Shown: piece after piece, positions 59,805 to 64,000 of the stretch
How positions within the stretch are numbered: position 1 is the first letter of the stretch
Layout of the letters: every line of letters starts with the position of its first letter
Source: a virus
Taxonomy: Duplodnaviria > Caudoviricetes
Length of the DNA stretch: 64,000 nt
Virus record (IMG/VR): IMGVR_UViG_3300028591_000171
Location: 1-64,000 of that record
Strand: one strand, 5' to 3'
Notes under the pieces: model-generated
The model's input: only the letters and a program-made list of their open reading frames with translations
Database searches by the model: none
What the model was told of the DNA's origin: nothing
Translations under genes and position numbers: made by a program

Positions 59805-60156
59805 GCTGATGCTGGTGACGCTGAAGGTGATACCGATGCTTTTGGCGTTATCGGCTATGACCGGCATGTTCCTGGATTTTCTCGGGATTGACAGTTCCGT
59901 GCTCTCTTTTGTCGGAGGTGTGTCGTTGTTCCCGCTGCTTTTCCTTTATCTGGCCTCTTATGTTTTTTGTTTCTGCGAGTATCACAGGATGTTCCTCCAT
60001 TATGTCGTGGCGAACAACCTGCTGACATATGCGGATTATTATATAGGAATCCCGATAAACGACAGGAGCCTTTTCATGGTCCATATCATTCTTATCGGGA
60101 TATTCCTTTTCCTCGTGTTGTATTTCTATAGGACTGAGAGATGTTGCGGACAATAA
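59764..60156 (+). CDS. Multi-pass membrane protein
   Basis: Three to four hydrophobic segments; ATG at 59764 preferred over TTG at 59707. Confidence 0.65.
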   Translation: MTRAESLKGKRPYRLMLVTLKVIPMLLALSAMTGMFLDFLGIDSSVLSFVGGVSLFPLLFLYLASYVFCFCEYHRMFLHYVVANNLLTYADYYIGIPINDRSLFMVHIILIGIFLFLVLYFYRTERCCGQ

Positions 60157-60434
60157 GGAGACTGCTTCTCGATATTGTCGACGACATAGACGCCGGCAAC
60201 TCCAACATGAGCGAGGATGAGGAGATGGAGCTTATCCGTGTCCTTAAGGAACTCTCCAGGAAGGACAGGCCCATGAGCAAGTATCAGGCTTACACCTATC
60301 TCAATGTCAGCAGGGCGACCTTTGACAATATGATAAGGGACGGAAGGTTGCCCAAAGGAAAGAAGGTCGCCGGCTTCAAGGAGCTGATGTGGTTCGAGAA
60401 AGACTTGAAGGATATCGCCGGTAAGAGCAAGTGA
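60141..60434 (+). CDS. HTH DNA-binding protein (AlpA/excisionase-like C-terminus)
   Basis: SKYQAYTYLNVSRATFDNMIRDGRLP...W pattern. Confidence 0.65.
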   Translation: MLRTIRRLLLDIVDDIDAGNSNMSEDEEMELIRVLKELSRKDRPMSKYQAYTYLNVSRATFDNMIRDGRLPKGKKVAGFKELMWFEKDLKDIAGKSK

Positions 60435-62824: not shown

Positions 62825-63301
62825 CTAAATGTAGTTGTCAAGTCTTGAAGACTCTATCTCGCCTTGGCGGAACGCCTCCTTGTCATTCTCCGAGGCGAAA
62901 ACCATATTCCCCACGTCATCGGGGTTGGCTTCCGGCAGGTAATATCCCTGATCCTCAGCCCATCTCCTGAACGCGTTTATGGCCCTTGTCATCTCGTCTG
63001 TGGTGAGGTCGGCGGAACTGCGTATATACTGTACTCTCATCCCGGTAAGCTTGTCCACATCCTCCCTGATGAATATATCCGGATTGGACATTATCTTGAA
63101 GTATACCTCCTTCGAGTATTTCTCGGTAACTCCGGTCTCTATGGCGAGTATCCTGCAGAGCACATGAAGGTATGAGTTCTGGTTGAGCGAACGCCTTGAC
63201 TCGTCAACCAGACTCGCGTTCTTGCATTTCTTCTCGAGAAGCCTGTTGGCCCTCTTGACGAACTGTTTCCTGTGTAAAGGGTTAGTCAGATCGTAATTCA
63301 T
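62825..63301 (-). CDS. NinB-like protein
   Basis: RSLNQNSYLH and RSSADLT..EM..AI..F..WA motifs typical of NinB-like phage proteins. Confidence 0.55.
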   Translation of the reverse strand: MNYDLTNPLHRKQFVKRANRLLEKKCKNASLVDESRRSLNQNSYLHVLCRILAIETGVTEKYSKEVYFKIMSNPDIFIREDVDKLTGMRVQYIRSSADLTTDEMTRAINAFRRWAEDQGYYLPEANPDDVGNMVFASENDKEAFRQGEIESSRLDNYI

Positions 63302-63540: not shown

Positions 63541-63788
63541 GCGGAATAATACGCGGAATGACAGAACCGTCTCCGTAACTCGGTGGAAGCAACTGGATTC
63601 GAACCAGTGACCCCCTGCTTGTAAGGCAGGTTACAATCATACCGCGATTGAATAACATCTATCGCTAAGTTACTAATTTTTAATTGATTAACAAACAAAA
63701 ATCCAAATTTGTTTTTGTTTATTTTTTCTTTTTCTTTTTGATGTGCCTTCCAGATACGTGAGACACTATGCGGAATTGTTTGCAGAAT
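63541..63788. mobile_element. attP-like attachment region
   Basis: tRNA-Val 3' half as core, flanked by tandem GCGGAAT at 63541/63553 and GCGGAAT/GCAGAAT at 63770/63782; AT-rich spacer; integrase gene adjacent. Confidence 0.7.
63582..63630 (-). pseudogene. 3' half of tRNA-Val(TAC)
   Basis: - strand reads CCTGC-CTTACAA-GCAGG-GGGTC-ACTGG-TTCGAAT-CCAGT-TGCTTCC-A. Anticodon and T arms are intact; D arm and 5' acceptor strand are missing. Confidence 0.85.
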
Positions 63789-63816
63789 TTTGCTATCTTG
63801 CCGAAAAGTAAAAACA

Positions 63817-64000
63817 ATGGCGATTACAAACTTATATCTCGACATGAGGGGCAGAGCCAATGACGGCAAGGGCAGCATCCTCATAACCATCTATCACAAC
63901 AGGACGACATCTACAATCCCGATGAAAATCAGGGTGTCTCCAGAGAACTGGGACGGCAACCATATCGTCAGGATGCGCGAGGCTGACATCCTCAACGCTC
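63817..64000 (+). CDS. int: Tyrosine integrase, N-terminal arm-binding domain (3'-truncated by the window)
   Basis: MAITNLYLDMRGRANDGKGSILITIYHNRTTSTIPMKIRVSPENWD matches the Bacteroidetes integrase arm-domain pattern (LD.R...dG...i.i.i.h......i.v...W). The catalytic domain is outside the window. Confidence 0.7.
   Translation, partial: MAITNLYLDMRGRANDGKGSILITIYHNRTTSTIPMKIRVSPENWDGNHIVRMREADILNA

Follow-up and report, generated by a model that had tools for sequence, protein, structure and literature searches.

A putative attachment site derived from tRNA-Val(TAC) beside an integrase gene in a free Crassvirales genome

crAss-like phages are among the most abundant viruses of the gut, and how they persist is an open question, as the cultured members reportedly have no integrases and cannot lysogenise by integration (PMC8375218). 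Carjivirus communis has been described as a non-integrating phage-plasmid (bioRxiv 10.1101/2024.03.20.585998). Annotations of integrases, excisionases and repressors are enriched in Intestiviridae from the mouse gut and in the zeta group, and such modules are rare in Steigviridae, according to one study (PMC13503771). Steigviridae is the family nearest to the phage considered here. One further paper notes that some crAss-like phages have integrases (PMC9980608, citing Yutin 2021), and another cites a 'temperate crAss-like phage' (PMC8776839). In the literature text that was accessible, mentions of Crassvirales integrases are at the level of annotation, and no description of attP, arm sites, tRNA cores or their spacing in Crassvirales was found.

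Described systems that may be compared with the present one come from other genetic elements. IntN1 and IntN2 of NBU1 and NBU2, and IntDOT of CTnDOT, are integrases of mobilisable or conjugative elements of Bacteroides, not of phages. The insertion targets of NBU1 and NBU2 are tRNA-Leu and tRNA-Ser genes, at their 3' ends, and the attachment sites of these elements have flanking repeats. The common cores of NBU1, NBU2 and CTnDOT are short, about 13-14 bp, and lie at the extreme 3' end of the tRNA. In contrast, when set against these elements as they are generally described, the window (the whole stretch of 64,000 nucleotides analysed here) contains tRNA likeness that starts at the anticodon stem.

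The locus resembles the lambda Int/attP system in several respects. The integrase has N-terminal arm-binding, core-binding and catalytic domains, arm-type repeats lie on both sides of the core, and the int gene is adjacent to attP. However, no sequence similarity between lambda Int and the window integrase is detectable beyond the catalytic motifs, and a tyrosine replaces the first histidine of the HxxR motif in the latter. Unlike lambda attP, the site in the window has one tandem pair of heptamers per arm, both in the same direction, and its core is the anticodon stem-loop of a tRNA; no accessory sites of the IHF or Xis kind were recognised in it. A further comparison is provided by the integrase of the cultured temperate Bacteroides phage BS-TP2 (PQ571275), which is 37% identical over its full length, has the same YxxRH...LGH...Y motifs and is likewise preceded by a tandem heptamer pair. 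The BS-TP2-type heptamer is GGTGCAAAT with a period of 11 bp, whereas that of the window is GCRGAAT with a period of 12 bp. BS-TP2 and the Bacteroidales integrases adjacent to tRNAs differ from the present case in their carriers, which are 30-60 kb long and not crAss-like.

The window corresponds to bases 1-64000 of a linear IMG/VR virus record of 78,633 bp, rated by CheckV as about 80% complete. The remainder was analysed as a separate locus, L002, covering positions 63001-78633 of the record. The large terminase subunit, portal and major capsid proteins match the crAss-type PHROG families phrog_6681, phrog_6547 and phrog_11589. All 88 GenBank matches of the capsid protein are crAss-like, the best being at 51% identity to Bacteroides phages DAC15/DAC17. 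More generally, PhiCrAss001, DAC15/DAC17, crAssBcn and Carjivirus communis belong to the same order as the window phage, have capsid proteins 48-51% identical to its own, and share with it structural genes and giant open reading frames, which in this genome are 2803, 1885, 1584 and 1377 aa long. No match to GenBank phages was observed at the DNA level (megablast, 20 kb of the genome). The candidate attachment site is preceded on the left by a 77-aa gene, NinB, a tail-fibre gene and structural genes, and the integrase is followed on the right by small minus-strand genes encoding a DnaA-C-like HTH protein, DUF551, RusA, an exonuclease VIII-like protein and an ATPase. Thus phage genes lie on both sides of the site. 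These protein families and this gene content confirm the assignment to Crassvirales and support the free, unintegrated state of the genome, both of which had been proposed in an earlier reading of the DNA by itself (below, the sequence-only reading).

The genome also carries a lambda-like set of recombination genes, namely NinB (window 62825-63301), a RusA-like resolvase (L002 9963-10328) and an exonuclease VIII-like gene (L002 11727-12770).

The features of the locus, in window coordinates, are as follows.

60141..60434, plus strand: gene encoding 97 aa, immediately before the tail-fibre gene; the product may be a regulator or a directionality factor
63541..63559, plus strand: left arm-type pair GCGGAAT-N5-GCGGAAT (predicted), starting 81 nt from the centre of the anticodon loop
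63584..63630, minus strand: 3' part of tRNA-Val(TAC), candidate attP core region, from the anticodon arm to the discriminator, with no 5' acceptor strand and no regular D arm
63614..63630, no strand assigned: anticodon stem-loop CCTGC / 7-nt loop / GCAGG, loop centre at 63622; proposed core-type Int sites flanking a 7-nt overlap
63631..63769, plus strand: AT-rich spacer of the P arm, with a hairpin at 63690-63719 and then a T-rich run at 63720-63739, as read from the sequence
63770..63788, plus strand: right arm-type pair GCGGAAT-N5-GCAGAAT (predicted), 47 nt before the integrase ATG
63817..64000, plus strand: 5' part of the tyrosine integrase gene, which extends to 65067 of the full record (416 aa)

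We consider it likely that this stretch represents the attP site and the integrase gene of a free Crassvirales genome, with Int recombination at the tRNA-Val(TAC) gene of the host.

The tRNA-derived part is a fragment. ARAGORN predicts no tRNA in the window, nor in the 15.6 kb that follow it on the right. The Rfam tRNA model matches positions 63584-63646 of the minus strand at 33.3 bits; in this match the D arm is largely absent and the 5' acceptor strand is unpaired. Read by eye, the segment 63584-63630 contains an anticodon arm CCTGC-CTTACAA-GCAGG with anticodon TAC, a variable loop, a T arm, an acceptor strand TGCTTCC and the discriminator A. These 47 nt, together with the two C's that follow, account for the 49-bp 3' half of tRNA-Val(TAC) without a 5' half that had been noticed earlier. 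The flanking tandem GC(G/A)GAAT repeats of the same reading proved to be specific for this site: the 64 kb contain exactly two copies of the pattern GCRGAAT-N5-GCRGAAT, one on each side of the core (63541 and 63770) and both on the plus strand, with none expected (100 shuffles). The AT-rich spacer between core and integrase was also seen again.

The uniqueness of the repeats bears on the possibility that the enzyme acts on the tail-fibre genes, by inverting them or exchanging cassettes. Inversions made by tyrosine recombinases are known from Bacteroidales. However, the heptamer pair pattern is found nowhere in the window outside the att site, and the integrase is at a fixed distance from a tRNA-derived core in all relatives, so that this role appears very improbable. 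We retain the reading of the locus as an attachment site, with the heptamer pairs as predicted arm-type sites for the N-terminal domain of Int. The right pair probably overlaps the integrase promoter.

The integrase gene (63817-65067) is complete in the full record. Its product exceeds the Pfam cut-offs for PF17293 Arm-DNA-bind_5 (29.8 bits) and PF13102 Phage_int_SAM_5 (46.1 bits), falls just below that for PF00589 Phage_integrase (25.5 bits against a cut-off of 27.1), and matches PHROG 1, 'integrase', with E = 1.9e-27. The arm-domain integrase suggested to start at 63817 is thus full-length and has three domains. By profile matches and alignment it is shown to be a heterobivalent tyrosine recombinase of the Bacteroidota type, with predicted N-terminal arm-binding, SAM-like core-binding and catalytic domains. 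The catalytic residues were identified on the extended record: R264, R353, H376 and Y386 do not vary among the 25 homologues that were aligned, and they match the corresponding residues of the XerA structure (4a8e). In the same alignment to XerA, Tyr350 occupies the usual position of the first histidine of HxxR. The resulting YxxRH motif is also found in the integrase of BS-TP2 and in integrases adjacent to tRNAs on large bacterial contigs. Since the same substitution occurs in these enzymes, Tyr350 is best read as a variant of the family and not as a sign of decay.

Integrase homologues at 52-60% identity were observed on many contigs of 90-103 kb, and no contig longer than 103 kb was observed among the carriers of the best 120 integrase homologues. 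Genomic contexts of relatives were taken from ENA, Logan, IMG/VR and JGI. The gene order common to the relatives is a giant open reading frame, NinB and a small gene on the minus strand, an intergenic region, int on the plus strand, and minus-strand genes. The capsid proteins of five IMG/VR relatives are 79-85% identical to that of the window phage. Three of these five have direct terminal repeats, are rated complete, and are 94-100 kb long. The terminal repeats and the completeness indicate that these relatives are free, whole phage genomes with the att site inside.

In 18 relatives, with integrases 47-60% identical to that of the window, the same order was observed: heptamer pair, 3' part of a tRNA, heptamer pair, int. 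Reading toward int, these regions contain a pair TTTGCAGAAT-N5-GCAGAAT, a spacer of about 55 nt, the tRNA 3' part, a hairpin with a T run, and the second pair, typically TATGCGGAAT-N5-GCAGACA, at 38-59 nt upstream of the ATG. The tRNA likeness sets in at the anticodon stem, and the tRNA part is directed toward int. The cores of the relatives derive from tRNA-Ala(TGC), in two variants, tRNA-Pro(TGG), tRNA-Val(TAC), tRNA-Val(GAC) and tRNA-Lys(CTT), that is, five tRNA identities. In 18 of the 19 loci, window included, 81 nt separate the beginning of the left pair from the middle of the anticodon loop; in the remaining locus the distance is 83 nt. The distance from the loop centre to the right pair is 139-152 nt in the 19 loci, being 148 nt in the window.

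The layout and the 81-nt spacing, kept across the lineage, support the arrangement of arm pair, tRNA-derived core and arm pair as a true, if predicted, attP architecture. The anticodon stem-loop may be the core itself, with its stems as core-type sites and its loop as the overlap region. This is suggested by the fixed spacing to the arm pairs, by the start of tRNA likeness at the stem in every relative, and by the retention of the spacing in the window despite the inverted polarity of its tRNA part. On these comparisons, the att-integrase module is a real trait of the lineage. It is maintained by selection, as the substitution rates given below indicate.

The occurrence of the module in complete relatives with terminal repeats also argues against the integrase belonging to a separate small integrative element inserted in a phage-borne tRNA gene. 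Integration into tRNA genes carried by phages is known in principle. However, there is no intact or second copy of the tRNA to the right of the integrase and no foreign cargo there, which the sequence-only reading had named as the mark of such an element; genes of phage replication and recombination follow directly, in the same order as in the relatives. We regard this explanation as extremely improbable, and the module as part of the phage.

A stem of the form CTGC-N7-GCAG was considered as a common property of all cores. This is contradicted by locus L087 (Val-GAC), which has TTGC/GCAA, and by L088 (Lys-CTT), which has ATTGA/TCAAT.

The distances from loop centre to right pair cluster either at 139-141 nt or at 148-152 nt, a difference of about one helical turn (loci L003, L045, L052-L056, L081, L083, L085, L088, L089, L166-L171).

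An additional element, TATGTGACTGTCATGTGATTAAGCGGAGA, is conserved between the left pair and the core at about -250 to -215 from the int ATG (loci L003, L045, L052-L054). It holds ATGTGA twice, 11 nt apart, and a similar ATGTGAC occurs just before the right pair in several loci. This element may be a site for an accessory protein. The left copy of an element of this type is absent from the window.

The window differs from all relatives examined in one respect that had escaped the earlier reading: its tRNA part is directed away from the integrase. Among the loci compared, an inverted core was found in the window and in its 97% sister only. The latter is the Logan contig L051, whose integrase is 97% identical to that of the window and which has the same inverted core. 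The arrangement is not a plain flip of the segment between the arms, as the spacers of the window are unrelated to those of the relatives; when compared in inverted orientation, they showed homology nowhere except in the tRNA part and the right arm pair.

The inverted core could in principle be a crippled arrangement. One possibility is that attP is a relic in this genome, the tRNA inversion having broken the site, and the integrase being kept for some other reason or having not yet decayed. The restriction of the opposite-strand core to the window and its sister fits this reading, and so does the lack of an exact match to the acceptor strand among Bacteroidales-like genomes. On the other hand, comparison of the integrase genes of the window and L051 gives dN/dS of 0.034 at dS of 0.47, which places the integrase under strong purifying selection. 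The approximately 190 non-coding nucleotides from the core to the right arm pair contain five differences between the two, far fewer than the divergence of synonymous sites would predict. These two values argue that both the gene and the att site are constrained in the inverted arrangement. Moreover, the spacings of 81 nt and 148 nt to the loop centre are exactly preserved, as would be expected if the stem-loop were the functional centre. A relic is thus distinctly unlikely, and the inverted site is more readily seen as a functional one. By the same ratio of substitutions the integrase looks active, and the degenerate enzyme that would have spoken against the sequence-only reading was not encountered.

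The fact that the spacing is the same whichever way the tRNA is directed may be explained by a core formed by the near-palindromic anticodon stem-loop.

We then consider the possible target. No exact match to the full 47-nt core was found in 185,579 species genomes, nor to the 30-mer at its 3' end in JGI metagenome contigs. The 25-mer comprising the T arm and acceptor strand has one match among the species genomes, in G001 (L047 / G001:C3:45588-45807). The tRNA-Val(TAC) of this genome is identical to the fragment at 45 of 47 positions, the sole difference being a compensated pair in the anticodon stem. A search for the core with at most three mismatches in a sample of 400 Bacteroidota genomes yielded three matches; the assignment of the sampled genomes to this phylum was inferred from matches to Arm-DNA-bind_5 in all five genomes tested. 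A tRNA-Val(TAC) with an identical anticodon arm was found in 94 of 151 sampled genomes of one Bacteroidota order. Many of these tRNA-Val(TAC) genes have 38 contiguous nucleotides identical to the fragment and differ from it only in the 7-nt acceptor strand. In addition, the Val core of one relative (L083) and the tRNA-Val of genome G471 agree in 45 of 46 nucleotides; they differ at the first base of the anticodon stem. The 38-nt identity and this second match identify the fragment as a genuine tRNA-Val end of the Bacteroidota type. Thus the host tRNA expected to match the core was found in part, over 38 nt in many genomes of one order and at 45 of 47 positions in G001, but not at all 47 positions. 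The host is probably a member of Bacteroidales with a tRNA-Val acceptor stem GGAAGCA/TGCTTCC.

The genome G001 was rejected as a convincing host. It has a GC content of 64%, lacks a related integrase and has no other real match to the phage. It is a metagenome-assembled genome labelled 'uncultured Chryseobacterium sp.', and the GC content of the contig is far above that of the genus; the label or the binning may be wrong. A 26-nt match between G001 and the phage was considered as a CRISPR link and rejected, as it lies in coding DNA and not in a CRISPR array.

Integrated copies were sought in the clade and in more distant members of the family. No intact tRNA was found by ARAGORN upstream of int in about 27 loci of the clade, where the sole call is a 67-nt arm-less fragment (L004). 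A search of 401 sampled genomes from one Bacteroidota order yielded no integrase of the clade at E <= 1e-90. The expectation that genomes carrying the phage at tRNA-Val would be found was therefore disappointed for the loci and the 401 genomes searched. The situation is different for family members with integrases 34-39% identical to that of the window. These were found in 16 loci, on contigs of 91-379 kb that mostly exceed the length of one phage genome. In 14 of the 16, an intact, co-oriented tRNA (Gly, Pro or Glu) ends about 130-215 bp upstream of int. In position and direction, these tRNAs form the attL layout expected for the relatives. A tandem TGCAAAT-like pair with a period of 11 bp is present just upstream of int in the integrated family members, as well as in BS-TP2.

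These results are to be weighed against another possibility, that the recombination system works and is not used for stable lysogeny. Integration might be transient or rare, or the system might resolve multimers of a circular, plasmid-like form. This would explain why only free genomes are seen. Indeed, attP forms only were recovered, no repressor family was matched among the 20 open reading frames neighbouring the integrase, and the prototypic crAssphage is reported to be a non-integrating phage-plasmid (bioRxiv 10.1101/2024.03.20.585998). On the other hand, multimer resolution needs neither arm sites nor the 3' part of a host tRNA that switches among genuine tRNA ends, and the members of the family on bacterial contigs are integrated at tRNAs. 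We consider this possibility unlikely. The most likely function of the module, as far as it can be read from the comparisons, is integration at tRNA-Val(TAC). The ability to integrate into the host tRNA-Val that was proposed in the sequence-only reading is thereby supported in its components, namely the intact integrase, the conserved attP and the 38-nt match to the tRNA, but not by an inserted copy or an exact attB.

The sole excisionase-like candidate near the site is the 97-aa protein encoded at 60141-60434. It has a weak match to the PHROG 'excisionase and transcriptional regulator' and scores 19.8 bits with HTH_17, below the cut-off of 27.

Integration could proceed as follows. Firstly, the genome would circularise, and Int bound at the arm pairs would bridge to the arms of the anticodon stem (CTGC/GCAG). 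Secondly, strand exchange would occur within the 7-nt anticodon loop of the host tRNA-Val(TAC) gene. Finally, the T arm and acceptor strand of the phage would replace those of the host, so that the tRNA would be whole at one end of the prophage. As the tRNA part is inverted in the window, the rebuilt tRNA would mark the NinB side of the prophage and the integrase the opposite side, the reverse of the situation in all relatives. Int may also regulate itself, since its likely promoter and the right arm pair overlap.

A wider proposal, which we put forward tentatively and to which we assign somewhat less than an even chance, is that a branch of crAss-like phages at the level of a genus or subfamily is temperate and retargets tRNAs (Ala, Pro, Val, Lys) by swapping cassettes at a fixed position between constant arm sites. 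The near-palindromic anticodon stem-loop would be the centre of recombination, and a cassette could be captured in either polarity with the geometry of the recombination complex unchanged. The constant 81-nt spacing, the interchangeable cores and the one inverted core constitute a natural experiment on the retargeting of heterobivalent integrases.

A selected integrase-attP module in a phage close to the cultured Steigviridae allows for a concrete test, integration at a named tRNA gene. Such integration, if true, bears on the assignment of hosts, on persistence, and on the handling of these phages by prophage-calling tools. The module could also become an integration vector for Bacteroidales, like the pNBU2 vectors.

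Two minor observations concern possible traces of integrated forms. Two short Logan contigs, L051 and L046, start (L051:1, corresponding to window position 63602, and L046:1) within the core, 30 nt from the end of the tRNA likeness. If these assemblies use k = 31, such starts are to be expected from a branch of the assembly graph caused by a co-occurring identical tRNA, which might belong to attB, attL or attR.

The other observation is a contig of 7,028 bp from ENA (ERZ1029112), which contains an integrase 54% identical to that of the window together with the usual right-hand phage genes. On its left side, a gene encoding a 280-aa ABC-type ATPase and a gene of 383 aa replace the 2581-aa gene of the phage. 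This contig may contain an attL junction or come from a variant phage whose cassette differs.
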